In this document: positions 3,001-26,900 of the stretch, in pieces
Numbering within the stretch: the first letter of the stretch is position 1
Layout of the letters: each line of letters starts with the position of its first letter
Made by a program: the position numbers and the translations under genes
NCBI GenBank assembly: GCA_964187785.1
Contig: OZ076409.1
Coordinates: 43,402,001 to 43,466,000, forward strand
DNA: 64,000 bases
Reading direction: 5' to 3'
Origin: Amphiscolops sp. MND2022
Taxonomy: Eukaryota
The notes under the pieces: model-generated
What the model saw: the letters and a program-made list of their open reading frames with translations, nothing else
What the model was told of the DNA's origin: nothing
The model's database searches: none

Positions 3001-4035
3001 TGTATTAAGAGGTGTTGCTTCCCTGTGAAACCTCGTGTCGTAGCTGAAGAAAAAATAGAAATGGCGGGTTGCATTCCCGGAACTGGCACTGTTCGAGGAA
3101 CGTTTGGCGAAAGCTGCTCTATTGAGTTGAAACATGAACAAAATTACGAGGAGAGTACACATAGGGAAACTTCCAAACAAACCAGACACATTCAGTTAAG
3201 CAAATTGTCTGCGCCTGGACATGCTTTGATTTAAACTCTGTCTAAAACGTACGTGAAAACACGTTTTTGGGCCAGAAAATCTGAATTACAGAGAAATTAG
3301 AGAAACGTATATCAACGGAAAGATACAGTAAAGCAGTCCATATGATAGTATTTTCACTGTTCTTGAATGATTTCCTTGCTTTTCTTGGTCAAATTCGATG
3401 TTCAGGGCTGTCTAAAACGTATGTGAAAAATTTGGAAAACTTAACAATTTTCACGAAAATAAAAACAATAATGTACGAAACTAACTCAATAGGTTCGAGT
3501 TGGTCCTCTTCTATTCGCCACTACTTGAATGAGACGTTTTGGAATGCTCCTGACTAATTTCTGAATCAGTTCTATCTCCAGATCTTCCCACACTCTTTTT
3601 ATCGCATTTTTCAAGTCTTCTATTGTTCGGTATTCTTTTCCTCCTTCATAAATACGCCTTACAATCATCGCCCAAAGTTGTTCAATGGGGTTACAGTCTG
3701 GAAAGTGAGGTGCCCATTCCAGGACGTCGATGTTTTTGTCTTCCAGAAACTTTAGTGTTGATTGTGAGGTATGAGGTGATGCATTATCATGAATACTTGT
3801 TAATGGAACGGTAAATAATTCTCATTGAGAATTCTCTGATAATACTGCGAGTCGACATTCTTTTCACAAAAATGTATTGTTGTTCCTCGAGATCCAATGC
3901 CTGCCCAAACCATAACTCCCGGGATAAAAACTTTTTTTCCAAACCACTTTTTTTCTTCTTCCAATTGCCAGTACTTTCGACATCCATCAGGTCCATCCAG
4001 TAAAAAACGTTTTTCGTCGGTGAATGTGATGTTTT
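1..4035. repeat. Tandem array of a ~1844-bp chimeric unit (3' part of the Tc1 element plus a Helitron-like coding fragment), at least 2.2 copies, running off the left edge
   Basis: Near-identical ORFs recur at 96/1940/3787, 924/2768 and 1496/3342 (offset 1844-1847). The unit junction 'tgaatgtgatgtttt|gaagacacatg' occurs at ~344 and ~2188. Confidence 0.95.
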
Positions 4036-4837
4036 CGATATTAATTTGTCCAGCTGTGATTTGTTCGAGAACATTTTTTGACCATTCCGCTTTTCTTTTT
4101 TGATTTGCATCTGTTTGTGATGGTTGTTTCTTTGGGGAAGTGTATTTATAGCCTTCGTTTTTCAGAAAATTCCTCAATGTCTTTTTCTGCAGCTACGTGT
4201 AGCTGTGTGACTATTTTTGTAGGAAAACATGGCTTTCTTCACTCATGTGTCGTACTAAATGTCTTTTCATTGATTCTGATAATTTTTTGGCGGGTCCACC
4301 TCCGTGTCTGTAATCACCATCTCTCTTTGAACAATTGTTAACGCAGTTATATGTCCTTTTCAATTGTTTCGATATTTCGGTCACGGTCTTTCCTGAATCT
4401 CTCATCCCAATCATTCGCCCTTTTTCGATGTCAGTTAGTAAGGTTCCTCTCTACGGCATTCTTGATAATCTTGATTAATCTTGATATTCTTGATTAATCT
4501 TGAATAAAATACTCTTGATTTTTTGATGATCCCGAAGATTTTGATTGAATAAAGTTCTCTGAAAATAAAAACTTGGTTGGATTTAGAGTAGTTGAGTCGG
4601 ATTTCACGTTGAACGTTTTTTTTTCACATACGTCATACGTTTTAGACATAATTTTCATGACCGGAAGTTGAAAACTCTGAAACCGGAAGTCACATCAAAG
4701 TTTCTTTGGTGAAAACAATTAGAACATATAGCTCGTCTAACATCGTTTAAAATCTACTTAGATCATTTTTTCTGGTTTTCAATCTAAGTGAAAATAAAAG
4801 ATTGTTTCGATTTTTCACATACGTTTTAGACAGAGTT
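3234..4837 (-). mobile_element. Tc1/mariner DNA transposon (Tc3-like, DD34E), IR/DR-type ends, TA TSD
   Basis: 26-bp TIRs AACTCTGTCTAAAACGTAYGTGAAAA at 3234 and ending at 4837, flanked by TA (3232-33, 4838-39). Inner repeats of the TIR motif at ~3408-3430 and ~4621-4648. Confidence 0.92.
3486..4459 (-). pseudogene. Tc1-family transposase, disrupted by stops and frameshifts
   Basis: Motifs FTDEKRFLLDGPDG, VMVWAGI and HDNASPH...WAPHFPDCNPIEQLW, with 34 residues between the second D and E. N-terminal HTH fragment at 4211-4414. Confidence 0.9.
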
Positions 4838-8819: not shown

Positions 8820-9640
8820 ATTGGAAAACGTACATCGGGAGAGGCCGTATCATTTAGAACTTCAATTAATCTTTCCCCGAATTTATTTTCCTTGGCTTCA
8901 TTAACTTCCGAAATATCGAGTTCGATGTCACGAAAATGAGATACAGCGTTCAAATTAGGCGATAAGTGTTGCCACTGAGTTTTGAGGGTCTCCGGAATAA
9001 AATCCCACAAATTCACTTAGCATGAGTCACCAACTTCCAATTCACCACACTGCAATGACAGCAAAATGAGGGCCGAACGATTGACCAAATATTGGGATGA
9101 CTATTGCGACTGACATAAGCAAGACCGTAGTCACGCAACTGTACATCAACATAACGTAAACTCATGCCCCATTTTCTTTGAATAATTGAACCTTTTGATT
9201 CTTTGAATAATTTGAATAAATTCTTTGAATAAGGAAGTCAGTTCTTTGACTCCCATTGGTTGTTATGAAGTCCGAGGACACAAAGTCCTCAGAACCAGTG
9301 ACGTTGGGAAAAGCATTTGCAGAGTTCAAAGAATTCGATTCTTCAATAAAGAAACCTGCAGTGTCGAAAATTCCATTCTCATAAGGACAATCATGATTGA
9401 CATCAACGTTGGCTAAAGATTCAGTTAGGAAAACATCGTTACCTTCAAAGTCATCTGCAACACAGTTTCTGCATATTGTCTAAGTTATAGCATTCCTGTT
9501 CCCACAAAGCTCGCAAAATGTATTGCGATTTGTGCAACGTTCTGAGTGACGGGACAATTGACCACATCGTTGGCAGTTTTGTAGGCATTTTTCGGAGGCA
9601 TTTCTGAATGTGAAAATGAACTGGCAAATATATAGAAGTT

Positions 9641-9880
9641 AGTAGTAATAGCAGGGGGGGTTTAATGATGTTTTGGGCTCCCAACCGAAATTATTCTAAG
9701 TCAGAAACCTATCTCACTTTTAGGGCTCCCAACCGAAATTATTCTAAGACAGAAACCTATCTCACTTTTAGGGCTCCCGACCAAAATTATTCTAAGTCAG
9801 AAAGGTTAAAGTTCATTTTAACCATACCGAGCGAAATGTATGCCAATTGTCATGAATGTTTACTAATGCAAACTAATGAT
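9641..9880 (+). repeat. Polinton left TIR with internal 48-bp tandem repeats
   Basis: Reverse complement of 23711-23950 (4 mismatches seen). gggctccc unit starts at 9675, 9723 and 9771. Confidence 0.97.
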
Positions 9881-10185
9881 ATTAAACTATCGAGCAGACC
9901 GACTTATATGTATTTGAAACTTGAATTGAAAGAAATAGCTTCTTATTCATGCATTAATGCAGTGCAAAGAAATTCACTATAAAATTCTAACCTTTCGTCC
10001 TCTGACAGCAGCAGCAATGGGAATATAAATAAATTTCCGAAAATGAGACATTGATATATTTAGAAGATAATTCTGATTCCCGAAACTGAAAAAAAAACAG
10101 GGCCGGCAGTATCTAGATATCACAAACCTAGAAACTGTGCTTTCTACATGGAACTTTCCATTGGCATCTTCCAAAGGAATTTTCC

Positions 10186-11115
10186 ATGTTTACCGTTGAT
10201 GATACGTGTGATAAGAAAAATCGTCATTATAACTTGAAATCGTCTCCGGAACAGTTAACAAGCCTTACCACTAGGCGCGAAATGACTTCAGTGTTTCGCG
10301 AAATACCGAGTAATTATTGGCTGCTCTTGTTTTCAACGGAAGAATCCCAAATCTACAGTGATGTCTACGAGAAGGACAGCAACTCAAAATCATCAAGTCT
10401 TTCCAAATTGCTGGAAACACTCTCCAATTCTCACAAATGCCAATTCATTGGAAGAGTTCATACTAAAGAGGACTCCACTAATGGATCGCTGGACGAGTTT
10501 TGTGAAGCCATGCCTACAAATCATCATCATGTTCTCTTGTACCTCCCACAATCAACTAACGCAGAAACAATGTTGAAACAAACCATTTCACAAGTTTTGT
10601 CCAATGAACAATGGGCAAAGGTACGACTTCTCACAGTTTCGTATCCAGAAAACTTTCTGAAAACAGAGACGTCAACTTTTTGTCATAGATCTCTCATTGT
10701 AGAAGGGGAGAGAATGAAGAGTCTAATGACTCGGAAAACAACTGAAAGTTTGGGTTGTAGTTTCAACTGCGTTTGGGAACTTAACAGACACAATTCCTTG
10801 GGTGACTGTCCCGATAATGAAAATGCTTTATACATTTTCCAAAAGCTCGTGGAACTTGAAAAAAGTGATGCGCCTTTCAAGGATACTGTGATATCTTATA
10901 TTGAACTTTTACAACGAGGTATCGGACGACTTTTTCTATCAGAGCACAGTAGAATATTGGATATTGATCTGGGAGTCTCAAATGCTCAATGCATGTGCTT
11001 TGAATGTCTGAACCAACCTTTGCAACTCGACGAAGCTATCGACAACACATCATCAAGCTCTCAACTGTTTTCCCCTTATAATGAAGACACCATAATCGAT
11101 ACTTCATTTCTGTAA
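10186..11115 (+). CDS. Polinton ORF1, 309 aa, unknown function; possible HUH-fold (Rep-like) domain
   Basis: Intact ATG ORF inside the element. Motif pattern YWLLLFSTE ... GRVHTKED ... NHHHVLLYL and a C-terminal CxCxxC. Confidence 0.75.
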   Translation: MFTVDDTCDKKNRHYNLKSSPEQLTSLTTRREMTSVFREIPSNYWLLLFSTEESQIYSDVYEKDSNSKSSSLSKLLETLSNSHKCQFIGRVHTKEDSTNGSLDEFCEAMPTNHHHVLLYLPQSTNAETMLKQTISQVLSNEQWAKVRLLTVSYPENFLKTETSTFCHRSLIVEGERMKSLMTRKTTESLGCSFNCVWELNRHNSLGDCPDNENALYIFQKLVELEKSDAPFKDTVISYIELLQRGIGRLFLSEHSRILDIDLGVSNAQCMCFECLNQPLQLDEAIDNTSSSSQLFSPYNEDTIIDTSFL

Positions 11116-11210
11116 AATTTCAATTTGGAAACAGTTGGCTTGTTTTATAATTAATTTCAATTTGAAAACAGTTGGCTTGTTTTACAATTCAAACTTTCAG
11201 AGAAACTGTA

Positions 11211-11618
11211 ATGTTTTCTGCGAGACAAATTTGTGAAAATTTTGTGGCGGTTAACTACTGCTTTCCTAAAAACAGCACCACCAAAAACGCTTTCTTAGCA
11301 GTTTGTCGTTATATAGACGAGAATGTTGATTTGAGGGAAGTTAACCTTAAAGCACCTTTCGGAGGCAAGATAGGGCCAGGCGATAGTAAGTTGGATAATT
11401 ATCTAAAGTTTTCAAAAATTTTGAGGATGCATGCAATTTTCCATGATGCTTATGGGTACATACGCAGCTTCGAGGAAATTGGCCCAGGTTACGTCTACAC
11501 TCTCACAAAGGCTCAGTCTTTCCACAACAATATGCTACTAGGACATTTCTCAGGAATATCATATTGGTTATTCGTCAAATTGTTCCATCGAGAGCATTTC
11601 GATGCTTTTCCATTTTAA
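11211..11618 (+). CDS. Parvovirus-type phospholipase A2-like protein (PLA2X-like)
   Basis: GKIGPGDS resembles the YxGPG Ca-binding loop and is followed by HAIFHDAY (HD dyad). First ATG at 11211. Confidence 0.65.
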   Translation: MFSARQICENFVAVNYCFPKNSTTKNAFLAVCRYIDENVDLREVNLKAPFGGKIGPGDSKLDNYLKFSKILRMHAIFHDAYGYIRSFEEIGPGYVYTLTKAQSFHNNMLLGHFSGISYWLFVKLFHREHFDAFPF

Positions 11619-11703
11619 CAATCATTTGTACTTTGAATATTATTCCGTTCAGTTGCATCCTGAAGTGGAGATATATCAATTTGATTCAAAACTACGCTAG
11701 GTT

Positions 11704-12057
11704 ATGAGCGGCCCTGATTTGAGCCATACTAGTGGCTACTACAGTAACTGGTCGTTGAACAACCGAAGCGATCAAGAGGATCAAATCGATCACGGAAATT
11801 TATCGGTTCCGAACCTTGAAAGAATCATATTCGACCAAACAGACAACGAAAGACCACCCTACACTTTTTGTTGTTGTAATTCCCGAGTCGAAAGGTCGCT
11901 GGTGTTGGTCTTTTTACATTATTTCATACTTATTGCAGTTTTTACGTTCTGTATTCTTTTCCTAACTCTTTGTGAAAACGACAACAAAGTTTCCTCCGGG
12001 ATTCTAGCGATTCTATCAGCTTGCATAGGTCATATTTTACCTGGTCCAAAGTCATGA
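11704..12057 (+). CDS. Small two-TM membrane protein of the type found upstream of Polinton ATPases
   Basis: CCC motif, then two hydrophobic stretches ending ILSACIGHILPGP. The stop overlaps the ATPase start (ATGA). Confidence 0.75.
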   Translation: MSGPDLSHTSGYYSNWSLNNRSDQEDQIDHGNLSVPNLERIIFDQTDNERPPYTFCCCNSRVERSLVLVFLHYFILIAVFTFCILFLTLCENDNKVSSGILAILSACIGHILPGPKS

Positions 12058-12755
12058 ACAAGAGAATCAGTACAAATCCTCATTGTTTCATTTCTGTGGT
12101 GGGTCCAGCTGGTTCTGGCAAGACACGATTGATTGGAAGGATGATTTGCAACCAGGAAAAAATTTTTCGCCCTGTCTTTGACAAAATACTATACTTTTTT
12201 AAACATTACCAGGAACCGTATAGACAACTTGAAACAGAATGCCTTGCCAACAAAGTTGATCTGCAACTCATTCAAGGCTTGGAGTGGAATGCGGTCGAGC
12301 GAGGAGAAATCTTGAAGCAACGTACTCTCGTCGTTATAGACGACATGTATGACGAAGCTGCTAACAGCAAGGAGTTTTTGGACCTAGTGATCGCTGGCCG
12401 TCATCGCAACGTTCACCTGATGGTGTTACGGCACAATCTTTTCCAACAGTCCAAATACTCAAAGACGATTGATTTGAATGTGACTCAAATTGTTCTATTC
12501 AATAGTCCAAGAGATTCTGAACAAATTGGAATTTTGGGACGTCAACTGGGCGAGCGTTCTACTCTACTGAAGGTCTATAAAAGAGCGACTCAAGAAGCAT
12601 TTGGTCATTTACTGATAGATTTGGATGTGAGGAGCAGCAGGAACCTCAGATACTGCTCACATTGCTCTGGCGACGAACCATCCCATTTTTATTGCGCGAG
12701 AGACGAACTTTTCATCTCAATCAATGATGAATTTACAAAATTACTATACAGTTGA
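12054..12755 (+). CDS. FtsK/HerA (A32-like) genome-packaging ATPase
   Basis: Walker A GPAGSGKT, Walker B LVVIDD, GRHRN arginine motif and GHLLIDL. Confidence 0.95.
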   Translation: MNKRISTNPHCFISVVGPAGSGKTRLIGRMICNQEKIFRPVFDKILYFFKHYQEPYRQLETECLANKVDLQLIQGLEWNAVERGEILKQRTLVVIDDMYDEAANSKEFLDLVIAGRHRNVHLMVLRHNLFQQSKYSKTIDLNVTQIVLFNSPRDSEQIGILGRQLGERSTLLKVYKRATQEAFGHLLIDLDVRSSRNLRYCSHCSGDEPSHFYCARDELFISINDEFTKLLYS

Positions 12756-13068
12756 TTTATATCTAAAGTTTTCACCTACATTGAAAAAAATTTTCATTTT
12801 ACATTGTCCAGATAACATATTGAAGTTTTTCTGTGACTGTGTTTTCAACGTTGTAAAGGGGAAAGTCAAGCTAGACAAAAAGTTGCAAGAAAAAGCTGTT
12901 TTCCTGGCACGTGAGAAAGTGAATCTAGAGAAAATTTGTTCGAAACGCCGAGTTGCCTTGAAGCGAAAACGCCAAGTATTGGGCTCAGAGAGAGGTTTGC
13001 GTCTGTTGAAATTGATTTTGCCCTCGGTAGAAATTCATTTGAAAAGTTGCCATGGAATCGAACAGTAG
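12724..13068 (+). CDS. Small basic conserved Polinton protein with a C-terminal amphipathic helix
   Basis: CDCVFNVVKGKVKL...KRKRQVL...GLRLLKLILP pattern, typical of the ORF that follows Polinton ATPases. Confidence 0.7.
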   Translation: MMNLQNYYTVDLYLKFSPTLKKIFILHCPDNILKFFCDCVFNVVKGKVKLDKKLQEKAVFLAREKVNLEKICSKRRVALKRKRQVLGSERGLRLLKLILPSVEIHLKSCHGIEQ

Positions 13069-13750
13069 CCTGCGTGACCTAATCTTAATCACTCACGAAG
13101 AGTACATTTCTCTTAAAAGACAAGAGAAAACACCAGACGCACGTGAGAAGCAAAAACAGCATTTACTTTCAAAGTTTGCCGAAGCTACTCAAACTAATTT
13201 TGAACCCATTGAAGAAAACCAGTTCAAAACTATCGATACAGCCAAAGAATTACCTGAAGACTCATTAGTTGCCCAGTTGAACTTGAATTCACGATACCAT
13301 TCGGGAGACTCGAGCACTTCGAACACCGTAGAGACAAAACAATCGTACAAAAACCCATCTGATCAAGTTTTGTCAAATTTACTACAATCTGGCGTGACCG
13401 GTGGAAAAGTTGAAAGGTCGAGACAAATTTTAAAAAAGATTGAAGATTGCGAACGAACTACGATAGATGAAACAAATCAAACCATCAATTTAGATCAACA
13501 AGACACGGGAGTAAGTGTTGTAGAGTTTCTCTCAGCATTGCAAGTCAATACGAAACAATTGCCAAAGAAATTTCTCACCCTGGTTGAAGTTCTCAGAATT
13601 CCACAATTTCTGCTGGCAAACACCTACGCGAGACAGACAAGCAATCAAAATCAGCATCAAATTCGCTTAGCGAGCGGAGCGTCTCCCTACAAAAGGCTAA
13701 AACTCGACACAGAACAGGGTAGCAGCAGTCAGTGGTTGACAAATTTTTAG
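13052..13750 (+). CDS. Polinton hypothetical protein, 232 aa
   Basis: Intact ORF tightly packed between neighbours. N-terminal LILITHEEYISL and C-terminal W motif, as in Polinton pre-integrase ORFs. Confidence 0.75.
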   Translation: MESNSSLRDLILITHEEYISLKRQEKTPDAREKQKQHLLSKFAEATQTNFEPIEENQFKTIDTAKELPEDSLVAQLNLNSRYHSGDSSTSNTVETKQSYKNPSDQVLSNLLQSGVTGGKVERSRQILKKIEDCERTTIDETNQTINLDQQDTGVSVVEFLSALQVNTKQLPKKFLTLVEVLRIPQFLLANTYARQTSNQNQHQIRLASGASPYKRLKLDTEQGSSSQWLTNF

Positions 13751-13751
13751 A

Positions 13752-14909
13752 ATGAAACGGTGGTTTTGTGGATCTTGTAAAACGCCTCTGGGTAAAGGAT
13801 CCAAAATATCTCCCTCACTTTGGTGTCATGTCTGCGGTTGGGTGCATTTCAAATGCAGCGGTCTCGAGAACAGCAAGGAATGCAACGACAACTTTTTGTG
13901 CTCTAAGTGTGATCGAAGCAGAATTTTACTCAGTGACGAAACTGACCGTGATTATGCTACTTCCTTCACGAAAATTCACGAAAGTTATACAAATCCTAGG
14001 AGTAAAGCAGCATTTGGAAGCAGACGCAACTTGGTAACAACTTCCCAATGCTCTTCCAAAAATGTAGATCGATACCTCAATTCGAGCGAAACGTACACAA
14101 AATTCAAACTAACCAGGAAACGTTTCTTGCGATTGAAAGTTGTCAGTTATAGGTTGAATGAAATTTGGTCAGTTGATTTGGCCGATATGCAAAAACTCGC
14201 AGCTAACAACAGCGGAATTAGATACCTGTTTGTGGCAGTAGACGCCCTAAGCCGTTATCTCTGGGTGGAACCCCTCAAAGTTAAAACATCACAAGCTTGT
14301 AAAGAAGCTCTAAGGAGGATCATTGTCAAAAACGGAAAGCCTCCGGTGCCAAAAATTTGCAGTGCAACGCATCAGCCTGAGAAGATTTGGGTAGACAAGG
14401 GCCGCGAATTTTCTGGAGAGTTTGCCAGTTTTTGTCGGTCAAAAGATATTGTAATTTATTCCACCAAAAGCGAAACAAAGTCTGCACTAGCGGAAAGAAA
14501 TATTCGATCGCTCAAATCATTGATCTTCAAGTACATGCACGAGCATGACCGTAACACTTACATTGATGAAATTGATCAGTTTGTTTCCATCATTAACCGT
14601 CGCGTGAACCGCATGACAAAGTTGGCTCCCGCTTCAGTCTCCAAAAAAGACGTGCCCTACTTAGTATCGCTTTGTCACACCAATGTTCTGCGGCAACCAA
14701 AATTCAGAATTGGCGATCAAGTTCGAATTCGACGCAAAATTGATACATTTCATCGAGGCTATAAGATACAATTCACTGAAGAGTTATTCACTGTAACTTC
14801 GATTCCCACTTGCAACCCTCCCACTTACACTGTCAAGGATAGAAATAACGAAATTATACAGGGCAAGTTTTACGAACCCGAACTCGTGAAGTTTGTAGTA
14901 CCATCCTAG
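13752..14909 (+). CDS. Retroviral-like (rve) DDE integrase with an N-terminal PHD-like finger and no C-terminal chromodomain
   Basis: Catalytic motifs WSVDLADM, IWVDKGREF and LAERNIRSLK. C-terminal FRIGDQVR...GKFYEPEL. C4HC3 pattern at aa 6-53. Confidence 0.95.
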   Translation: MKRWFCGSCKTPLGKGSKISPSLWCHVCGWVHFKCSGLENSKECNDNFLCSKCDRSRILLSDETDRDYATSFTKIHESYTNPRSKAAFGSRRNLVTTSQCSSKNVDRYLNSSETYTKFKLTRKRFLRLKVVSYRLNEIWSVDLADMQKLAANNSGIRYLFVAVDALSRYLWVEPLKVKTSQACKEALRRIIVKNGKPPVPKICSATHQPEKIWVDKGREFSGEFASFCRSKDIVIYSTKSETKSALAERNIRSLKSLIFKYMHEHDRNTYIDEIDQFVSIINRRVNRMTKLAPASVSKKDVPYLVSLCHTNVLRQPKFRIGDQVRIRRKIDTFHRGYKIQFTEELFTVTSIPTCNPPTYTVKDRNNEIIQGKFYEPELVKFVVPS

Positions 14910-14928
14910 TCTGAAACCAATCGGAGAC

Positions 14929-15906
14929 ATGGCCAGAACAAGCAACCGAGGCGGTCAAGATTTTACGATGAACCTAGTATCGAACGCGTCCATGACTACT
15001 TTTCCCGGAAACTCTTTGTCAAACTTCACGACGCTGTTACCAACAACAATGTCCTTGCCTGGCGATTGGCAAGTGGCACTGGTTGAAATTGCTTGGCCGG
15101 CAATGGTCCAAAACGTTACTGTTGGAGAGTTTACAGTCTCAAAAAAAGTGCCGGCTTTGCCAGTTGAAAAATATCCTAGGCATCACAAACACGGTTTGAT
15201 CTCGATGACAGTCCCCTCTGCATTAACCCAAATACCAAATTACAGTGAACCTGTAACGCTTTGTATAAAGCCCGGTTGTTACCCATCGGTCGACGCAATA
15301 ATGAAAGCCATCATGAAAGCTGCTCTGGGCAAGAAAGATGGCCAATTGAACGCAACTCCTCGGACGAATGACTCTTTTATGTCTTGGAAAATTGATAGTG
15401 TAACTAGACGATTACATGTCAAGTCGAGCGCAATTGCTGAAAACGAAGCATTCAAAATTATGGCAGTCTCGGACGATTTGAAAAACATTTTGGGCACCGA
15501 TGTAATCATCGATTGTCAATCACAAATTCGTCACGAAACTGAAGCTTCTGACCAAATTGCTTCAGGAATTGCCAAAGTTGTGAAACAAGTCGGACGGTGG
15601 CCCATCGATCTGAATGCCGGTAGTCACACAATGTTTCTCTATTGTGATCTTGTACAAAACGAGACGCTGGGCGACACGCAGACGGCACTCCTGAGGTCCA
15701 TTCCCCTCAAGAGTATAACTTTGGCGCAAACTATGGGTGAAGTGAATCACAAGAGCTTCACAAACTTGCAGTGGAAGCGAATCGTCAAACCTCAATTTCA
15801 GTCAATCAGTCTAACCCTCGCCAATGAGATGGGTCAAAAAATGCCCTTTTTGAGCTGCGGACGCACCAACATTACTTTAGCATTCCGACCGGTGCCGCAA
15901 TATTAA
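14929..15906 (+). CDS. Minor capsid protein (penton-like)
   Basis: N-terminal FTMNLVSNASMTTFPGNSLSNFTTLLP...WQVALVEI; C-terminal MFLYCDLVQ..LGDTQTALLRSI...ITLAFR. Confidence 0.9.
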   Translation: MARTSNRGGQDFTMNLVSNASMTTFPGNSLSNFTTLLPTTMSLPGDWQVALVEIAWPAMVQNVTVGEFTVSKKVPALPVEKYPRHHKHGLISMTVPSALTQIPNYSEPVTLCIKPGCYPSVDAIMKAIMKAALGKKDGQLNATPRTNDSFMSWKIDSVTRRLHVKSSAIAENEAFKIMAVSDDLKNILGTDVIIDCQSQIRHETEASDQIASGIAKVVKQVGRWPIDLNAGSHTMFLYCDLVQNETLGDTQTALLRSIPLKSITLAQTMGEVNHKSFTNLQWKRIVKPQFQSISLTLANEMGQKMPFLSCGRTNITLAFRPVPQY

Positions 15907-15978
15907 TCGGCGTCATTTGTTCTCCAACTTGTGGGAGGTTCAGTTGGTGGTCAATTTCAAAATTGGCTTGCTTTCACA

Positions 15979-16488
15979 ATGGATGCTCACTATGATTCGC
16001 AAATTAAATCAGTCGTCGCTCACACCAATTACAGTGGACCTGCAAGACAGATGGGATCTGGAGGTGGGCTGGGAGCTTTTGCCGTCCGTATGGGACGTGT
16101 GGCCATTCCTCTAGTAAGGAAATACGTTTTGCCTGTAGCAAGACAAGTTGGCAAAAACTTGCTTGAGACTGCAATTCCCGAAATTGGAGATGTCCTGACA
16201 GGCAAAAAGAAGCCCAATCGGAAACTTTTGGCCAGTGTCGCGAAAAAGACTGCTGTAAAAACAATGAGTAAAAACTTGCCGGCGGGCGTCGCACTTCGCC
16301 CGGGCGGCGGCAGCGAGCGGAAACCGGGGGCGGCTCGACGGGTGACGAATGGCAGCGTCGGAGGCGGCGAACGGCCAGTGTCAGCATTGGTCAACAGGAA
16401 ACGAAACAGTTCGACCAGCATTTCGCGAAAAACAGCCGCCAAAAGAAGTCGGTCCAACATTTTGTCTGAAATTCAATATTCCAATTAA
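15979..16488 (+). CDS. Basic virion core/membrane-lytic protein (cupiennin-like N-terminal helix after a QxGxG protease site)
   Basis: YSGPARQMGSGGGLGAFAVRMGRVAIPLVRK...VGKNLL followed by an Arg/Lys-rich tail. Positioned between the penton and MCP genes. Confidence 0.75.
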   Translation: MDAHYDSQIKSVVAHTNYSGPARQMGSGGGLGAFAVRMGRVAIPLVRKYVLPVARQVGKNLLETAIPEIGDVLTGKKKPNRKLLASVAKKTAVKTMSKNLPAGVALRPGGGSERKPGAARRVTNGSVGGGERPVSALVNRKRNSSTSISRKTAAKRSRSNILSEIQYSN

Positions 16489-16500
16489 AAAATCGTCAAG

Positions 16501-17848
16501 CTGGCGTCCGTCAACAATGTATTTGTCGGCAGTGCAAGCGAGATTGCGAGGCCCGTGACACACAGTGCGTTGGACTTTTTCGAGAAACCAGGAGTTATGA
16601 TCAACTATGAAGGAGCCTACGATCAAGAAGTTTTTCCACACGTGGGTTGCCGTGGACCTCAATTGGACTTTTTTGTTGCTGCGGAAGCGAAAAACCTAAT
16701 CGACTTGAATCGCATCATTCTTTGCGTTGAAGTAGCAATTTATCTTGAAGATGGCAAGACAAAAGCCAAACCTGGTGATGTTGACGTTGTTTTCTCCAAC
16801 AACACTCTTCACACTCTCTTCTCACATGCGGAACTTTACCTAAATGAAAAATTGATTTCTCACAGCAATAATTGTTACTTGCATTCAGCATTTGTAGAGA
16901 CTGAACTTTCAACCGACACGGAAAGCAAAGACTCATGGGCCGAATGCCAAGGATATCATTATTTGGCCAAGTCGAGTGGAAAAGATCAACAGTTTAACAA
17001 GCTCGCTGCCAGCTTTGCAGAAAAAAAAGAGTGCAAAGTTCAGCTCTGCGGTGCTCTCCACCTTGACTTTTTGGACTGTGAGAAATTTTTGCTTCCAAAT
17101 GTAACTCTACATGTGCGTCTATATCGATCTCCGAACAACACTGTTCTCCATCTAAAAGGTACTGACGACGATGCCAAGAACCTTGACGGTAAAATACTTC
17201 CAGTTGTTGAAAAAGCCTCTCTCTTTGTTCGAAAAGTGGTCGTGACTGACAGTGTCAAATTGTCAATCGAGAGGGCATTATTGAAAAGTGAGGCAATATA
17301 TCCCTATATTGAAAGCTTGAACAAAAGTTTTATCATTCAAGCTGGACAAAATTGTTTCATAAAGGAGAATATTTTTGGGACAGAGCCCATTCGGCGTCTA
17401 ACTTTGTGTATGGTGAAAAATTCTCTTTTCCGGAGTACTCCACTCAATGAAACGCCATTCTCTTATCAAAAGTTCAACTTGCAGCGAGTAGAAATTCAGC
17501 GGGGAAATGGGGTTCCGCTCGCAGGAACTCCACTAGACACCACAAACAATGTGAGGTTATATTACAATACGATAACAGCACTCGGCTTTAAGGAAAAAAG
17601 TAACGGAATCAAACTTGAGGATTACGAGGACAATCATTTTTTCCTTGTCTTTGACCTGACTTCAACAGAGGAGGCTAGCAAAAACTACACTCTTTCCCGA
17701 ACTCACCGGTTCCAGCCTAACCTTAAAGTTGTACTTTGAAAAAGCTCTGGACGATGCAATCGAGTTATTTTTGATTGGGGAACGGTTCAGTCAAGTCATT
17801 ATAGATTCAGCAAGAAATATAAAGAAAAACAGACCATATGATGGATAA
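16501..17848 (+). CDS. Major capsid protein (double jelly-roll); CTG at the apparent start, +1 frameshift near 17685
   Basis: SALDFF, NNTLHTLFSHAELYLN, LHLDFLDCEKFLLPNV and FLVFDLT motifs. Removing one A from the A-run at ~17680 continues the frame TLFPELTGSSLTLKLYF...IDSARNI to TAA at 17846-17848. Confidence 0.9.
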
Positions 17849-18372
17849 CGCAACTCTAAAACACATGATCCTTCGCAACTCCACACTGAGCGTAGCCTTT
17901 GCGGGAATTTGGTCAGCAGACAACTTCAACTTGCAACCAGTCACAACTGAAACGACCACAAACTTTCTCGCAAGCGAACGATTGGTTTGGTTTCAAATTG
18001 TAAATACTTCCCCGCGAAACTCACATGGATCGCACTGGTTGCTTCTCGGCGCTACTATTGCGCAGGGACAAAAGAAAATGCAGGTGTTCGTCTGGGACTG
18101 TTTGGGTCAACCAGTGTCTGTCTACACAATGTTTTTCAATCGCCTGAATCAATTGTATGGAAAAACGGGATATCGACAAATTGCACTCAAACTTCAAAAT
18201 GCTAGTTCCAATATGTGTGGTCTCTATTGTCTCTTTTTGATTCACTATATAGCAAAAAAAACCCTACGAATTGTCTCAAATCGATGAAAAATTGAAATTA
18301 TGTAGTGAAATTGAAATAATCCGTTTCATAAATGATAAATACAATACATTATTCAGATATACTGTGTTTTGA
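17838..18372 (+). CDS. Adenain-like cysteine maturation protease; frameshift in the A-run at ~18253-18261
   Basis: Catalytic pattern GSHWL / VWDCLG / LQ...NMCGLYC. The alternate frame continues PYELSQIDEK...RYTVF to TGA at 18372. AATAAA at 18378. Confidence 0.9.
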
Positions 18373-18417
18373 ATACAAATAAACTTTCATAGCAACCGTC
18401 TTTTCATTTTCATAAGA

Positions 18418-21400
18418 CTAGGCCAGGCCATGCGTCGCGTCGTTTTCATCGCTACTGGAAGAATAGTCTACAATTTGTATTTTACGACGACTTTGACTGT
18501 TCAATTTTCTCGAGGGAAGTTGCTCATTCGTTTGAATACAATCATCACCACTCGACTCTTGGGCCTCGTAGTTGATAAACGGGCAGTTGAACTTGTCTTG
18601 GTTTTCATCAGCCTCAAGGTCTACAGACAAATTGTCCCAGTCAACAATATCCGAAAGCTCATCAACGTCGGGTATTGAAGTTTGTTGATAAAGACCAGGA
18701 TCGGGGGCAGCTGAAAGAAAACCAAGATCAGACTGGCATGCTAAAAGTGCAGGCTCTTGAATAAATGTAGCTTTGGAATCGATACTACTACTCACTGAAA
18801 CTCGCCGATTGCCATGCTCTTTTCAGGGGACTGCTGTGACTCGGTAAAGAAGCCGACGATTCATCTGATGAACCACTACTACTACTACTACTTTCGTGAC
18901 TGTCACTTGGGGAGGAAAAGCTAGTGTTGCTACTACTGCTGCTGCTGCTTGAGCTCCTCAAACTCTCACAGTCGGTAGATTCGTCATTTGTGGGTTCAAC
19001 GGAACCTACAAGAAAGTTTTGAAAGTTTTGCACTTGGGCAAATCTTTTAATGAAATTGAATAAACTAACCTCGGAGAGATGAAGGTATTTTATAATGACC
19101 ATAGGCGAGAGAATTGATTCCATCATCCATTATGTACCGCTTGTCGTCAAACGAGCTGAGAGCTATTTTGTCGACAGAGTTCACAACAATTTGATGATTG
19201 AAGGAACGAAGTTGAGTCATTCTTTTGGTGAAGTTCTTTTTCGATAGAAGGCATTGTTTGAAAAGATCGTGATGCAGAGTCTTTTTAACCGTTTTGGAGA
19301 CGCCTTTGGCGCTCTGCTTCTTACCTCCAACAAAATCTATACTATAAAGTTTGGACCTCAGACATACTACCTCGCGAAGGATTTTGCCCTGCAGTTCATC
19401 TGTCATTGTCAAGGGGACCTTTTTGTTTGTAGGATCATACAAAAAATGTTCACGTGGATAATCTGAAAGGTCCAGTAGGTGCTTGAAACATGCCATGTCT
19501 TGGTACAAGTCATTTGTCTCGATACAGTATAGGAGGGAATCAGTATCTTTGTATGCCAGTTTCAATCGGGCTGCAGTATACCGAGGAATCATCACTTCGT
19601 AGTGGAATTTGTAGAGAGAAAGTTTTGATAGATCTAGAATAGCAGCACCAACCGGAGTTGGTTTGTCCCACACCACACAAGCCATTTTGAAGGAAACACT
19701 CACAAGTTTTTCGTTGATGACCTGAAAAGACTTGAAAGATGCTTTCTCAACAAAAGATTCCGCCTGCTTTGCACTTGAAACAAACTTTAAGTTGCTGCGC
19801 TTCCGTAGATTCTCCATGGTCTTTCCAAAGCAAGCATTACTCATCAGTTTGAAAAAAGCCTTCTCGAAATCATTGTCTGCTTGTTTCCGCATTACTGTGT
19901 TTTTTTCTATGTAGACACCGAGCCACTTGCTCTGTTTGAATTCGCAAACACGATGCACTCTGTCTACAACGAGACCGTGCTTAACGTAGAATTTCAAATT
20001 TTCATAGTGACATACATAGTTTTTCTTATCGAAGAGAGTCTCTATCAGTTTGGCTGTTTTGCTCGGCTTAACACCGAAGCTTTCAGCATAGTCAGATAGC
20101 CAAGATTGTTGAATTATCTTTTTCTCGGGTGCCAGCGGGAGGCCATTGTGAGCATCGTGTAAATGCTTGGGATATAGAAAGTCAACTTCAACAAAGTAAC
20201 CCAGAGGTGAATCAGTTGGAGTATCAAGCAATTCCTGTAGAGTGATAGACGTGTTCCATTTGTAATCTCCGCTTGGCATCAATTGTTGCATTGTACCCGC
20301 GTAAAGGGATGTTACATCGAAAAAGGCACCAAAAGTAGTAGTTTCACTGGAAGCAAAACTCGGTAATAGAGGATTGTTAGCCGTAAAGTGACGAATTTCA
20401 CCAATTCCATTGACTCCCCCACGTATACCACGTTCGAAAAACAATAGTTTATCAATATCATCCAGCAAACCCAGCTTGGCTTCAGTTGAAATGAGCATAG
20501 CGTCCCAACTGAGGTTAGGGGCTGAAAAGAAGTGTGCCGGATCGAGTTTGTACACCTTGATGCAAACCCTTCTAAAGTTTTCAAAAATATCAGCAAGAAG
20601 CAAAACGTCGGTTTGTAAGTAAACATCATGATACTCGCCGAGTGTTTTACAAGAGAATGCGTTGTAGATAGAAACAGCTTCATCAAACTCTTCATTAGTG
20701 ATATCGATTGATCCCGTCAACGAGTTTTTCCAGTCGTTACCATATGGTGGCAAAGGTGCTTCAAACTTGCTGAAGCTATCCAAAAAACCGTAGGGAAAAT
20801 AACCCTTTTTAATGAGTTTTTTGAATAACCCCTCCGAAATGTTGGAGAAGTAGCCACGAAGGTGAACGAAATCCTTAGACTGCAACGTTTTTGCCAAAGC
20901 GTCAAGACTTTGAGGCATAAATTGTAAGCTGTCGAGAAATCTGAGCGAATGATATAGTGACACTATTCGATTACGTTTGTCCTTATAACTCCCAACGGGT
21001 ACGGCAATACTAACAGAAGTGTAGGTTTCATCAGTCTTGGATATTGCTGAAAGTTTTTCACCAGGTTTCAGCTGTAGATTTTTTAAAATGTGGTGCGAAT
21101 CATATCGAGAGAAATTGTGAAAGAAAATTGGGAGGAAGTTTGATGATCTTGCTCTGAGGTTGCATTTTGAATGTGCCACCCCAAAGATTTCACCAGTCAA
21201 ATGGCAATGATGAATGACCCGAGTTGACTTTTCAGCATTCTTGCCACAAATACAACAGATTTTTGAATCTCCAGATAAATAATTTTCCCGCTCCGATTTT
21301 GAAATTCGGAGCCAGCGGAAAGTTTGCTTCTCATGATAACACCACAGTGTCCATTCACGCAGAACAGAAAGTAATTTGTCGATACAATTCTGGCCGCGAT

Positions 21401-22910
21401 AGAAGGAGCTTTTCACAACACCATCAGCTGAAAAGAAATATTTGAAGCCCAAAAAAAAATTTTAAAAACGACAAAACTGAACCACTCACCTCTCATGTCA
21501 ATTAGAACAGCTCCGTAACTGGCAGGGTACTGTCGCTCAATTTCACGCGTTTTGGATCTTGCGTCGGAGCCCGATTCCGACTGGCACATTGATCGCCTCC
21601 AAATCAGCGTATACCGTAAAAGGACATCTTTGTGTTTTTTGCCAATTCACAAATTCAACAACTCGGCCTTGCCCGGGCATCACAATTTCCAGAGGGACAT
21701 AAGTTTCACAAAACTTCAAGTGCCTTTGCATGTTTTGTTTTGCTATCGGCTGGTAACAGTTGCGGCAAAAACGGCTCTTCGGGCCCGCTTCTCGTTTTTT
21801 GGGAGATCGTGATAAATGATGAATAATGTTTGAGAAATTTTTTATCAGACAATAGTGACTGCGCTTTCCATTGACAAGTCTTAAAAGATCCACTCGGCGT
21901 CTTGACTTCTTGTTCTTGCTGCTGTAAATGTTGATGAGTTTGTTGTCCTCAAGTTGGTAAACGTTGATCGAGCACTTATTTCTCATTTCAAATGAGCGAA
22001 TTCCCGAAAGCGGCATTGGCATTTGCTTGGGGTCGAAATTCAGTTTTTCAATGTTTTTCATATGACTCTTCAGTCTGAATGGAGAACCAACAAAAGAAAA
22101 TAACGCAGCTGCAATGCAATATAAAAAACAGAAGCTATCTTTTTTATTGACGATGTTCAATAAACTTTTTTTGAGATTTCGAAGGATTGGAGGAGTCTCA
22201 ATGTATGTGCCAGGAGGTGAGCTGGCAATCTGAGCTGTTTTAATTTCCAATCGGGAGAGTCTATCGACAACCCAGCCTGAACCGCCAGTGGCAAACATAT
22301 TCAGCTGAGACATTAGCTGATCGACATGACCCAAGAATTCATCCATGGTCATTTCAACTGACACCCTTGCCATATTCGAATTGAAGTAAGCTTCAGTTGT
22401 TTCATCTAGTAAAGGTTTCATGAGGCGAACGGCGATTGAGAAGCCAATCCTAACGCTTCTCGCAACTTGCAATTTTGAATTAATAAAGGCCAGTAATTCG
22501 TTTTTGAACGACACCAGGCAATTGAACGGGTCAATGAACCCCGAATCTTCCATTTTCATTCGATGGATTTGAAAGCGAGAATTGAACGCCTGAGTGGTAA
22601 ACTCTACAGTTGCTGACGCTGAGTGGGTAATTGGTAGAGGTTGGTGCAAATGGACTGTTTCCTCATGTTCGTTCAGAGTTGTCAGTGAACCAAAAATAGT
22701 TGGACAAGCAGGACATCGATGGCTTTCATTCATATTATGCTGAGAGCGTAAATGCCTCAGCAAATTTTTAGTTTGAGTGAATGCTACAGAGCAGTGGCCA
22801 CACTGAAAGACTTTGGTTGCGTTATTGCTATTGGGGTGTTTCGTTCTGAGATGATTAGTGAGGGCCCGTTGTGATACAAGAATTTTTCCACATTCACGGC
22901 ATGAATACAT
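18418..22910 (-). CDS. polB: Protein-primed family B DNA polymerase; predicted exons 22910-21490, 21427-19070, 19005-18796, 18710-18418, with one +1 frameshift near 21580
   Basis: Three N-terminal C2H2 fingers, ExoI YADLEA, CxxC..HCHLTG..AHxxCN Zn insert, ExoII HNFSRYD, motif A FDVTSLY, motif B KLMSNACFGK, motif C YKDTDS. GT-AG introns join the ORFs in frame. Confidence 0.9.
18711..18795 (-). other. Predicted intron 3 of polB (85 nt, phase 1)
   Basis: TTCA|GTGAGT...TTTTCTTTCAG|CTGCC; in frame with the acidic ORF ending at 18418. Confidence 0.7.
19006..19069 (-). other. Predicted intron 2 of polB (64 nt, phase 1); removes the TAG at 19065-19067
   Basis: CCGAG|GTTAGT...CTTTCTTGTAG|GTTCC; in frame with the Ser-rich ORF. 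Confidence 0.7.
21428..21489 (-). other. Predicted intron 1 of polB (62 nt, phase 1)
   Basis: AGAG|GTGAGT...TTTCTTTTCAG|CTGAT; splicing gives ...AVLIDMR-A-DGVVKSSFYRG. Confidence 0.8.
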
Positions 22911-23710
22911 TTTAGACGAATGCCGTGTTTAGAATATTTGTCATCATAGTCTCGTTCCAATCTTTCTATGCACATGAAATTTCGAAATTTGAATTACACA
23001 AAGACGCACATTTGATTTTGAACTAAAGCAATAGTTACCAGAGCCGCATATGCGGTAAAGGAGTCGGATTAGGTCTTTTTCCTTCTGACTCGCTCGAATA
23101 CCAGTCATACGAATTTGATAAAACTGCACACAAAGGATCATGATATGGTGTAGAATGACTCTACAAAATTTCGTTCGAATCGTATGGACAGTTTTTGAGA
23201 AAATCGAAAAATGGCTGTTTTTGGCTATGTTTCTCACATTCCAGTCATACAATTTTGACGCCATTGCGCAGACAGGGGCCCCTTTCGGTGTAGAATGATT
23301 GTGCAAAATTTCATGAAAATCATATGGACAGTTTTTGAGAAATTTGAAATTTTCATAAAAGGTCGGGAGAAAAAACGATCCGATTGCATAAGTAGTCGAA
23401 AATTTTTCCGACTCCTAAAAATTTTCATCTGGAATGAGACTATGATCGATGTTTTTTTCCATGGAATTTTACCCTGTTTTTCTAAGTTTCGGAATTCAGG
23501 AATAAAAGGGTTTTCGTTGTTCAATCAGAAATATCGTGTTTCCTTGAATTCTTAATCAATGTTATAATTCTATTCAATTTTGTTCTTTTGGCTACTTTCT
23601 ATGATAACTTTCGTGAATTGTCAGGAAATGGCAAAATTAGTTGATAAAATCAATAAAAGTTGAATCTCAGTTACCATTATTGAAATGTATTGAATTCAGA
23701 ATGCACCTTC

Positions 23711-23950
23711 ATCATTAGTTTGCATTAGTAAACATTCATGACAATTGGCATACATTCCGCTCAGTATGGTTATAATGAACTTTAACCTTTCTGACTTAGA
23801 ATAATTTCGGTCGGGAGCCCTAAAAGTGAGATAGGTTTCTGTCTTAGAATAATTTCGGTTGGGAGCCCTAAAAGTGAGATAGGTTTCTGACTTAGAATAA
23901 TTTCGGTTGGGAGCCCAAAACATCATTAAACCCCCCCTGCTATTACTACT
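23711..23950 (-). repeat. Polinton right TIR
   Basis: Reverse complement of 9641-9880, followed by TSD GAAGTT. Confidence 0.97.
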
Positions 23951-26900
23951 GAAGTTAATATGTGACTATCAGAAAAAGCGGAAATAATCTAGGAAACTAT
24001 CATTTGAAGCAAAATGTTTTTTGGCGAAACGAAAAACCATGAAAATCGAAACCAAACAGTAGACGTTTTTATTCAGCCTGGCACCTGGGCAATTTTTCGA
24101 AAAATTTTCCAAACCATCAAGTATTTAAACCAAAATTGTAGGACTAACAAAAAAGTTGATTGGAAATTTTTTTTTTATTTTATTCAAATGTACTAGGTCA
24201 AGTCAGACAAAACATCTTGAAACGTCAAACATTCTTATAATGCGCTTTTATGATAAGCAAAAGTTTCAACACTTTGGAATAAAACAGTCATCAAGGCCGA
24301 GGATAATCCTCAAACCGAACGCTTAACCAAAGTCTGTGCTTTAGATGAATGAAAATGTTGTAAAAGTTTAAAACAAAGTGTAATGGAATGATTTGAATTC
24401 GACTTTTTGCCAGCTCAACAGCAATTACATGAAGGTTGAATCCCCCGTGACAATTACCGATGAATGTTTTCTTTCTTCACGCATTTCACGCCATCTTCTT
24501 TTAGAAGGACGATTTTTGCCACCACACGGCAAGTAATACGAGGTATCGAAAACTGACGTCTTGCATGAGTTGAATTTCGCCTCGGTCGTGTGATGAAGAT
24601 AAACATGCTTAAACTTGTTTGACGAAAAAGACCTACGGACAATTCGTTTTATATTGAGATTCGTGAGGCCGTGTGATTTGTGGAAGGATCTCCAAAATAA
24701 CTGTCTCTGCGTCAGATCTTTGCAAATAGCATTAGGCAACAACACCATAACTCTTTGTCTCCTGTAGTTGTGACTTAACTGTGTCAAAAGTAGATAAAGA
24801 GTGTGAGTATGAGATCGTGCCAAAGTTTTACCATGGCATCATTATTGAAATGATTTTTCTTCAGAACAGATATAACTTTTTTCTTCGACTTTTCGCGGTT
24901 GAAAGATAAGCCGGTATCGCTATTATACACAGGGAATTGTATGAATCCATTGGAAGATCAATAATATATCGGCTCAGCGAAATATTAAACTTCATAGACA
25001 TTCTAATTAACTGAAAAAAACTGTGCAAGTCATGAGACTAGAATATTTTGGAAACCCTCAGATCTATATTGTTCGAGGTATCGAATTCAACAAGCAATAG
25101 AACAGCTGATTTGAAAAGTTGTTTTTCAACCCGTTATCATCCGAGGATGATCGCAGATCATAAGGGAAAAATAGAGAATCGGTAAACATGCAGATTGTAG
25201 GTAAATCAAATGAAATAACGTTTCCAGGTTCTTTAACGACTGACTTCAAACTTGGGAAATTGTGTCAAATGCATAAATTTTGAGCGGTGCGCACTAGAAA
25301 TATACATGTATAATAAATATCCCGATTATTATATTTTATGCATGTATCCAGTGGCCTAGAAGGTGTTTTTATTCAAATGTACTAGGTCAAGTCAGACAAA
25401 AAATCTTGAAACGTCAAACATTCCTTAGAATGCACATTTACGATAACCAAGAGTTCCAACACTTTGGAATAAAATAGTCATCAAGGCCGAGGAAAATCCT
25501 CAGACCGAACGCTAAACCAAAGTCTGTGCTTTAGGTGATTGAAAATGTTGTAAAAGTTTAAAACAAAATGTAATGGAATGATTTGAATTCGACTTTTTGC
25601 CAGCTCAACAGCAATTACATGGAAGGTTGAATCCCCCGTGACAATTACCGATGAATGTTTTCTTTCTTCACGCATTTCACGCCATCTTCTTTTAGAAGGA
25701 CGATTTTTGCCACCACACGGCAAGTAATACGAGGTATCCAAAACTGACGTCTTGCATGAGTTGAATTTCGCCTCGGTCGTTTGATGAAGATGAACATGCT
25801 TAAACTTGTTTGACGAAAAAGACCTACGGACAATTCGTTTTATATTGAGGTTCGTGAGGCCGTGTGATTTGTGGAAGGATTTCCGAAAGAACTCTCTCTG
25901 CGTCAGATCTTTGCAAATAGCATTAGGCAACAACACCATAACTCATTGCCTCCTGTTGTTGTGACATAATTGCTGACACAGAACTTGCAGTGCTCTCATG
26001 AACTGTGTCAAAAGTAGATAAAGAGTGTGAGTATGAGATCGTGCCAAAGTTTTACCATGGCATCATTGTTGAAATATTTTTCTTCAGAACAGATATAACA
26101 TTTTTCTTCGACTTTTCGCGGTTGAAACATAAGCCGGAATCGCTATTATACACAGGGAATTGTATGAATCCATTGGAAGATCAATAATATCGGCTCAGCG
26201 ATAAGGCAGCGAGAATATTAAACTTCACAGACATTCTAATTAACTGAAAAAAAGTGTGCAAGTCATGAGACTAGAATATTTTAGAAACCCTCAGATCTAT
26301 ATTGTTCGAGGTATCGAATTCAACAAGCAATAGAACAGTTGATTTGAAAAGTTTTTTTCAACCCGTTATCATCCGAGGGTGATCGCAGACCATAAGGTAA
26401 AAAATAGAGAATCGGTAAACATGCAGATTGCAGGTAAATCAAGTGAAATGACGTTTCCAGGTTCTTTAACGACATCAAACTTGGGAAATTGTGTCAAATG
26501 CATAAATTTTGAGCGGTACGTACTAGGAATATACATGTAGAATAAATATCCCGATTATTATATTTTATACATGTATCCAGTGGCCTAGAATGTGTTGTTT
26601 TCTTGTGTTGAATTTTCTGATAATCGAAAAACGAAAGGAGATGGCTTTTGCCTTTTTATTACTTCTGCGATAGCAGGAACAATATTAAAATCTCAACAGT
26701 TCAATTTTTTTAGTTCAATTTTTGTCGTGATATCGAGTGCCTACTGAAAATTTTAGACGAATTGTTCGGCAGAGAGTGGTAAGCGTGATAATCAAATTTT
26801 TTAAGCTGCCGACAACATTTCGTTTTTCGTGCGATGGAACGAGCGATTAGTGATTATGCATTTGTACGCCGAATTCATCGAGGTGAAGCGAGCCAATGTT

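Follow-up and report, generated by a model that had tools for sequence, protein, structure and literature searches.

The window analysed, 64,000 nucleotides of contig OZ076409.1 of Amphiscolops sp. MND2022 (assembly GCA_964187785.1), contains a mobile element of 14,310 bp (9641-23950; all positions are those of the window) which starts with AGTAGT and ends with ACTACT. Self-comparison delimited two terminal inverted repeats (TIRs) of 240 bp each, the left one with the AGTAGT start (9641-9880, plus strand) and the right one with the ACTACT end (23711-23950, minus strand), differing at 4 positions (98.3% identity). Within each TIR a 48-bp repeat is present in 2.8 copies, which in the left TIR lie at 9671-9803. 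The sequence at the junctions and the comparison with an empty site identified GAAGTT as the target site duplication (TSD) on the left (9635-9640, plus strand) and on the right (23951-23956, plus strand). GAAGTT occurred 35 times on the plus strand of the window, and a chance match at one fixed position would be expected about once in 1,800. With its TIR ends, a 6-bp TSD and genes for a protein-primed DNA polymerase (pPolB), an rve integrase, an A32-like ATPase and an adenovirus-like protease, the element is a Maverick/Polinton. The AGTAGT termini, 240-bp TIRs and perfect 6-bp TSD had been proposed in a preliminary description of this DNA, and were borne out by the junctions, the TIR alignment and the empty site.

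The empty site was found by self-comparison of the window, approximately 5 kb from the element, in a duplicate of the flanks without the element (28852-33953, plus strand; 9441-9640 joined to 23951-28853), and has one GAAGTT (29046-29051). A paralogous empty site with a single GAAGTT fixes both the element boundaries and the TSD. Over 4.9 kb, the flank duplicates differed by 19 substitutions (19/4903, 0.39%) and 4 indel events (99.43% identity). An empty site in so similar a duplicate marks the insertion as very young. Alternatively, the assembler could have joined the other haplotype in tandem, and the insertion would then be polymorphic and not younger than a true duplication. The window does hold several tandem duplications of 98-99% identity, but the duplicate is sharp-ended and the left flank common to both copies is 200 bp only, so that a mis-joined haplotype appears unlikely; the insertion would be young under both readings.

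On the plus strand, the element begins with ORF1 (10186-11115, 309 aa, with a family-conserved start at 10282), for which an HUH/Rep origin-binding-like fold is predicted over residues ~40-185. It is followed by two 37-bp tandem repeats detected by self-comparison (11116-11189, no strand) and by a PLA2-like open reading frame (ORF) of 135 aa (11211-11618), with GPG...HDAY motifs seen by eye and no match in Pfam or PDB, which is presumably of the parvovirus type. A putative membrane protein of 117 aa (11704-12057) was named by composition, having hydrophobic C-terminal stretches and no Pfam match above the cut-off. The A32-like packaging ATPase (12054-12755; Pfam Pox_A32, E 3.9e-7) precedes a basic ORF of 114 aa (12724-13068) and an ORF of 232 aa (13052-13750), neither of which belonged to a family in Pfam, PHROGs or NCBIfam. 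Downstream of the integrase (13752-14909) are a putative minor capsid protein (penton; 14929-15906), labelled from position and family motifs, with no match in Pfam, PHROGs or NCBIfam and with its exact sequence present on 4 contigs, and a putative basic core protein of 169 aa (15979-16488), labelled from its position and lying in the same reading frame as the gene downstream. The PLA2-like, membrane, penton and core labels are presumed from position and family motifs.

The putative major capsid protein (MCP) gene (16489-17848, plus strand) was assigned mostly by position and family motifs, has 173 homologues (46-99% identical), and shows a frame break at ~17685. Capsid_N was matched weakly (E 0.014) by 3 of 32 aligned MCP relatives, and no match was found among PDB sequences. 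The adenain-like cysteine protease gene (17838-18372, plus strand; Pfam Peptidase_C5, E 5.6e-5) has a frame break at ~18255, 3' of the His, Asp and Cys motifs recognized by eye. Approximately 36 conserved MCP codons (16489-16597) were observed 5' of the first ATG (16597), in frame with the stop of the core-like ORF. In the 99%-identical sibling cluster the MCP start was mostly called at the same internal Met, and an 88% relative starts farther upstream; the start could be a CTG in good context at 16501, or could result from read-through.

The gene order given in the preliminary description (PLA2-like, transmembrane protein, ATPase, integrase, penton, core, MCP and adenain, converging on PolB) stands. 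Of the names it attached, ATPase, integrase, protease and PolB were supported by Pfam, the MCP by the weak Capsid_N match only, and the penton, core, transmembrane and PLA2-like labels by no profile match above the cut-off. Its inventory left out ORF1 (10186-11115), both ORFs at 12724-13750, the three introns predicted in PolB and the two exons at the PolB 3' end (19005-18418).

The integrase (Pfam rve, E 1.1e-9) carries an N-terminal PHD-like finger (PHD_2, E 0.014; PHF23 PHD, E 0.005). No chromodomain was matched in its last 99 aa at E ≤ 1, and only 19 nt separate its stop from the next ORF. It is fairly likely that the PHD-like finger takes the place of the usual chromodomain, possibly as a different chromatin-targeting module.

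The PolB gene occupies the minus strand of the right part of the element (Pfam DNA_pol_B_2, E 1.8e-21; Endonuclease_7, E 2e-5; 2132 homologues). Two direct repeats of 117 bp, 74% identical and with no other copy in the window, lie 5' of it (23093-23349, no strand; self-comparison). Its first exon (21490-22910) includes C2H2 zinc fingers and OTU-like Cys and His motifs seen by eye, with no Pfam OTU match, and a frame break at ~21580. A second exon (19070-21427), with the Endonuclease VII-like and polymerase domains recognized by profile matches, is followed by a predicted Ser-rich exon (18796-19005) and by a predicted last exon with an acidic tail and PDPG...PFI motifs (18418-18740). The last exon was recognized by homology to C-terminal tails of related PolB proteins (P0121, E 4e-5; P0123, E 7e-5; L003, E 5e-5), in all three of which the tail is part of PolB. 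The closest named PolB was that of the acoel Convolutriloba macropyga (52%), followed by mussel, coral and spider proteins (39-40%). In a tree of 27 PolB pieces the element belonged to a 16-row clade (support 100/100) which includes the acoel protein. The host is probably an animal, perhaps an acoel. By its motifs, the PolB of the element is presumably of the Beta class.

PolB is split over five reading-frame stretches. The frame change at ~21580 shows no splice signals, and the other three changes coincide with short AT-rich GT-AG segments: predicted intron 1 (21428-21489, 62 nt, G/GTGAGT ... TTTCAG/C), predicted intron 2 (19006-19069, 64 nt, G/GTTAGT ... TTGTAG/G), which contains the apparent PolB stop codon, and predicted intron 3 (18741-18795, 55 nt, A/GTGAGT ... 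TTTTAG/C). All three are on the minus strand and in phase 1, and their frame arithmetic is compatible. Twelve sites on the PolB strand within the element fit the donor pattern GT[AGT]AGT; the motif by itself is therefore weak, and the case for introns is built on frame, homology and the match in L001. In this relative (65% identical), PolB is interrupted at the same codon and in the same phase as intron 1 by an unrelated GT-AG insertion of 111 nt that contains three in-frame stops, and relatives P0109 and P0126 are unbroken and colinear across the site. The sibling gene call P0358 reads through the intron-1 sequence. From these comparisons, intron 1 is highly probable, and introns 2 and 3 are likely. 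P0109 was considered as a spliced transcript and rejected, as it ends at the intron-2 position. Two minus-strand ORFs at 18421-19129 were also weighed as separate genes or as a fourth lesion, but from tail homology and frame they are better read as PolB exons. In the 50%-identical PolB relatives L003 (approximately 2831-2938) and L004, a different 108-nt stop-containing GT-AG insertion was observed, with the acidic tail in frame. Intron positions thus vary within the PolB clade.

Sibling copies were counted as members of protein clusters at 90% identity, which possibly include more than one assembly and of which 15 members per cluster were listed. The MCP cluster contained 39 members, the penton cluster 34, the ORF1 cluster 28 and that of the PolB piece 24, and nearly all listed members were on contigs of tens to hundreds of kb. 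On 7 contigs the MCP agreed at all 360 of 360 residues and had an intact C-terminus. A recent insertion from a recently mobile family, as proposed in the preliminary description, agrees with the empty site 5 kb away and with these near-identical proteins on many long contigs. Family proteins such as P0004/P0490, P0088/P0423 and P0008 came from contigs of 13,978, 14,043 and 14,262 bp, approximately the length of the element; these contigs could represent free genomes or else collapsed repeats. A distant ORF1 (P0313) and a distant MCP (P0442) both came from a contig of 8,341 bp, perhaps the same one.

As assembled, the element has the three frame breaks that had been noticed previously, at ~17685 in the capsid gene, ~18255 in the protease and ~21580 in PolB. 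The comparison of frame breaks with siblings covered the MCP break. Inactivating lesions common to all genomic copies, which had been named as what would argue against an active lineage, were not found there: the MCP C-terminus was kept in 12 of the 15 listed siblings, and the break at ~17685 is therefore private to this copy or an assembly error. With 4 indel events per 4.9 kb between the flank duplicates, three breaks in approximately 11 kb of coding DNA fit the local background.

The family might spread only as an intracellular transposon, or might already be dead, with its capsid genes not used for virions. Three frame breaks in the element copy, the number of truncated sibling calls (3 of 15 for the MCP; 10 of 15 PolB pieces shorter than 780 aa) and the lack of relatives in viral_contigs, scanned with the MCP and with the ORF1, MCP and PolB alignments, are all consistent with this. 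A metagenome scan returned five loci of 1.2-5.6 kb with PolB only, and no whole related element. Such a restricted or extinct family is nonetheless doubtful, as the MCP is conserved over its 173 homologues, intact identical siblings exist, and the number of breaks equals the local indel background of the flank duplicates.

The element agrees with described Mavericks/Polintons in its size, (AGT)2 ends, TIRs, 6-bp TSD, pPolB, integrase, ATPase, protease and putative major and minor capsid genes. Maverick/Polinton ends are (AGT)2 or (AG)3, and vertebrate Mavericks span 12.7-24.6 kb and are intronless when intact (Barreat and Katzourakis 2021; PMC8097293). Unlike these, the present element has a PolB with three predicted introns. 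Core genes of a nematode Maverick are also intronless (10.1101/2022.07.12.499685), and introners are known in dinoflagellate Polinton-like elements (PMC11957031).

The name adintovirus-like, used previously, holds for the animal-associated gene set, the PolB affinities and the PLA2-like gene. The PLA2-like gene, however, is described as typical of Alpha adintovirus virion modules; NS2-like genes also figure on the maps of two moth adintoviruses (Starrett et al. 2021; PMC8502044). An integrase C-terminal chromodomain, a PolB N-terminal OTU-like domain, a hexon that BLASTP recognizes reciprocally with reference adintoviruses and an association with animals are adintovirus features (Buck et al.; PMC11071296). 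As the integrase has a PHD-like finger instead and no chromodomain was found in it, the narrow published sense of adintovirus is not fully matched.

Homologues of ORF1 numbered 40 at 50-98% identity, and the wider family had 115 representatives reaching down to ~20%, none of them named. One of the representatives, P0312, was kept out of all alignments as an apparent spurious match to a repeat protein, and the conservation alignment comprised 41 of approximately 150 family sequences, with fragments and frameshifted calls dropped. Gene calls of the ORF1 family continued into the PLA2-like gene in 6 of 150 cases, including the distant relative P0328 (E 5e-38), and the gene pair is therefore old. 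Among non-gap rows, H92 (37 of 37), C106 (35 of 38), H113 (36 of 36) and H115 (33 of 37) were conserved, and the residue between H113 and H115 was variable (H in 14, Y in 11, others). The His-x-His of H113 and H115 stands at the start of the third strand (E81-87 in the numbering of the second model). Y153 (SYPEN) was present in 31 of 41 rows; the rows lacking it were the nine most distant and a closer one. No Tyr column was found in the 41-row alignment in the helix after the fourth strand, the site of the HUH catalytic Tyr (UxxYUxK). The C-terminus has a CxCxxC region, and neither an SF3 helicase nor an oligomerisation domain was found.

Two AlphaFold models of the ORF1 family (mean pLDDT 54 and 74, the second mostly 76-92 within the domain) had a 4-5-stranded sheet with flanking helices. 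In all four PDB searches the best solved match was the origin-binding nuclease domain of pMV158 RepB (Z 7.0-7.4, root mean square deviation 3.1-3.5 Å, 105-110 residues aligned; Foldseek E 0.019), followed by polyomavirus large T (LT), papillomavirus E1 and adeno-associated virus (AAV) Rep domains, with CRESS Rep domains ranking lower. Among viral models, the fold search returned parvovirus NS1 (E 2e-4), densovirus NS2 (E 3e-4) and Reps, with E from 2e-4 to 8e-4. The ESM features of the ORF1 relative P0227 matched Rep_OBD at 0.89, and 10 of its 10 best matches were of one family or clan. On these matches, whose scores are middling, an HUH/Rep fold of ORF1 is probable.

ORF1 shares with HUH Rep domains (pMV158 RepB, PDB 3DKX and 4U87, Pfam PF01719; AAV Rep, 1M55; parvovirus NS1) the predicted topology, the His-x-His on the central strand and a third His on the preceding strand. 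It differs from them in a Cys where RepB has Asp, in having no conserved Tyr in the catalytic helix, and in a separate C-terminal CxCxxC. The LT and E1 origin-binding domains, which have lost the HUH histidines, are a precedent for a Rep-derived fold serving DNA binding only in double-stranded DNA viruses. The ORF1 models matched those of SV40 and JC LT and of E1 (4GDF, 4LMD, 1KSY, 1R9W) at Z 6.3-7.1; unlike these helicase-fused domains, ORF1 stands alone and keeps its histidines. In RepB the metal is bound by His39, Asp42, His55 and His57, and the next helix carries the catalytic residue, Tyr99 (PMC5030251). The probable fourth ligand of ORF1 is Cys and not Asp, which suggests a structural zinc. 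With no conserved catalytic Tyr evident, DNA binding is likelier than nicking, and ORF1 was classed as HUH-fold-like only and not as an HUH endonuclease. On balance, DNA binding without nicking is slightly favoured as its predicted role. Most likely ORF1 has an HUH/Rep fold with a His3-Cys metal site but no helicase, and would act as a DNA-binding accessory factor.

Taken with its observed ends, TIRs, TSD, empty site, gene set and siblings, the element is probably a young Maverick/Polinton (Polintoviricetes) which an integrase inserted into an animal genome, and belongs to a recently mobile family with dozens of near-identical copies; ORF1, the predicted PolB introns and the PHD-like integrase are proposed as additions specific to the lineage. 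Several results weigh against parts of this interpretation. The TIRs differ more (4/240, 1.7%) than the flank duplicates do by substitution (0.39%), which is not what a simple clock running since insertion would give; the ends may have been unequal already when the element inserted. The capsid gene names derive mostly from position and family motifs, and MCP and penton stay putative. A second DNA example was found for intron site 1 only, and the site-1 label of P0104, P0110 and P0134 depends on few N-terminal residues and needs two changes on the tree. For ORF1, the fold scores were middling, with every Z below 8 and with unrelated ferredoxin-fold proteins less than 1 Z from RepB; PDB Foldseek gave no match at E ≤ 0.001; the Rep_OBD value of P0227 is below the 0.9 lead threshold of the Atlas; the ESM Atlas gave no usable match for the ORF1 of the window itself; and no sequence profile in Pfam, PHROGs, NCBIfam or PDB sequences supported HUH. 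A tblastn search of plasmids with ORF1 also gave no match.

Three other roles were weighed for ORF1. It could be an accessory or regulatory protein of the densovirus NS2 type, equivalent to the NS2-like genes of moth adintoviruses and not tied to origin recognition. Densovirus NS2 models ranked first and third in the second viral fold search (E 3e-4 and 5e-4), ORF1 adjoins the parvovirus-type PLA2-like gene, and NS2-like genes are labelled in the Spodoptera 1 and 2 maps (Starrett et al., Fig. S2). These moth genes may be of the same family as ORF1, and the proteins in the supplement of Starrett et al. may already include it as 'Adintoc' or 'NS2-like'. The NS2 matches had a TM-score of ~0.2 with a root mean square deviation of 18-24 Å, below the NS1 and Rep matches (TM-score 0.28-0.36). 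An NS2-type protein appears rather unlikely as a separate explanation, and is compatible with a DNA-binding accessory factor, the two not being exclusive. Densovirus NS2 and infectious hypodermal and haematopoietic necrosis virus NS2 models were matched by an HUH-fold query in BFVD with weak scores, which hints that NS2 itself may have a Rep fold.

ORF1 could also be an active HUH nickase which would cut single-stranded or hairpin TIR DNA, for release of the element or resolution of replication intermediates, with Y153 or a Tyr in trans as nucleophile. The His-x-His and the upstream His are intact in nearly all rows, Y153 is present in most of them, and the top structural match is an active Rep. 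Its improbability follows from the loss of Y153 in the ten rows mentioned, from the lack of a Tyr column where RepB Tyr99 sits, from the Cys in place of Asp, and from the pPolB and integrase already encoded by the element. A Polinton lineage with a working HUH nickase on its own terminal repeats, employing single-strand excision or hairpin resolution beside protein-primed replication, is equally improbable; if true, Polintoviricetes would include a Rep-derived gene that shares its ancestry with parvovirus NS1/NS2. Alternatively, the fold of ORF1 could be generic ferredoxin-like, hold a zinc site and have no relation to HUH proteins. This would account for Z below 8, for the scores of designed ferredoxin folds and ribosomal S6-like proteins, which come within 1 Z, and for the missing sequence match, but is improbable because Rep-family chains align over 100-122 residues versus mostly 77-96 for generic folds, the His-x-His begins the third strand, and the ESM features indicate the family of the top structural match.

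Reports of HUH genes concern Mriyaviruses and groups related to them, and none concerns Polintoviricetes in the available portions of 10.64898/2026.06.19.733378 and PMC11296320. Mriyaviruses and the 'Zora' Polinton-like-virus-like viruses combine a double jelly-roll with an HUH gene, and some with an rve integrase; they are related to Nucleocytoviricota and thought to be rolling-circle replicators (10.64898/2026.06.19.733378). The present element differs from them in its pPolB and linear protein-primed ends. The text available of PMC8097293 mentions neither a parvovirus-like nor a Rep-like gene ('parvovir', 0 occurrences), and that of Geisler 2018 (PMC5803895) neither NS2 nor HUH. Among literature titles, none described an HUH, NS2 or origin-binding gene, introns or a PHD-finger integrase in a Polinton; this survey was mostly at the level of titles, with many subscription papers outside it, including the founding papers of 2006-2007.

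Other repeats surround the element. Positions 1-4200 of the window have tandem duplications of 1.84 kb (99%) together with a fragment of a Tc1/mariner-like transposase, and 23951-35147 has nested tandem duplications of 0.6, 0.8, 2 and 5 kb (92-99% identity). A degraded BEL/Pao-like long terminal repeat retroelement with 299-bp direct repeats, 84% identical, lies at 41509-46826 (this label and that of the transposase were given by eye), and a Gypsy-like retroelement with several frame breaks, whose 3' part is duplicated in tandem over 2.3 kb (98%), lies at 55798-63769 on the minus strand.

By analogy with its family, the element would be replicated by PolB through protein priming from the AGTAGT ends, integrated by its rve integrase, generating the 6-bp duplication, and packaged into capsids through the ATPase, protease and jelly-roll proteins; virion formation is suggested by gene content only. 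The integrase may be targeted to chromatin through the PHD-like finger. ORF1 would act as a metal-stabilised, Rep-derived DNA-binding accessory, with the 48-bp TIR repeats as a plausible target by analogy with LT and E1. The PolB messenger RNA would undergo three splicing events by the host spliceosome, removing a frame change and a premature stop and adding the Ser-rich and acidic tail, and such splicing would imply nuclear transcription by Pol II.

A complete young Polinton is of a kind already known, and the additions of interest are ORF1, the spliced polymerase and the PHD-type integrase. The neighbouring empty site is an unusually clean proof of boundaries and youth. The PolB introns, if inherited, would indicate a lineage long transcribed and spliced in the host nucleus, and would caution that PolB genes recorded as 'frameshifted' may be wrongly scored as dead. 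ORF1 is a candidate factor for the recognition or release of Polinton ends. Gene traffic between polintoviruses and parvoviruses has already been described in the PLA2 and bidnavirus cases, and a conserved Rep/HUH-fold gene in an element with pPolB and integrase would, if true, be a missing link in that traffic.

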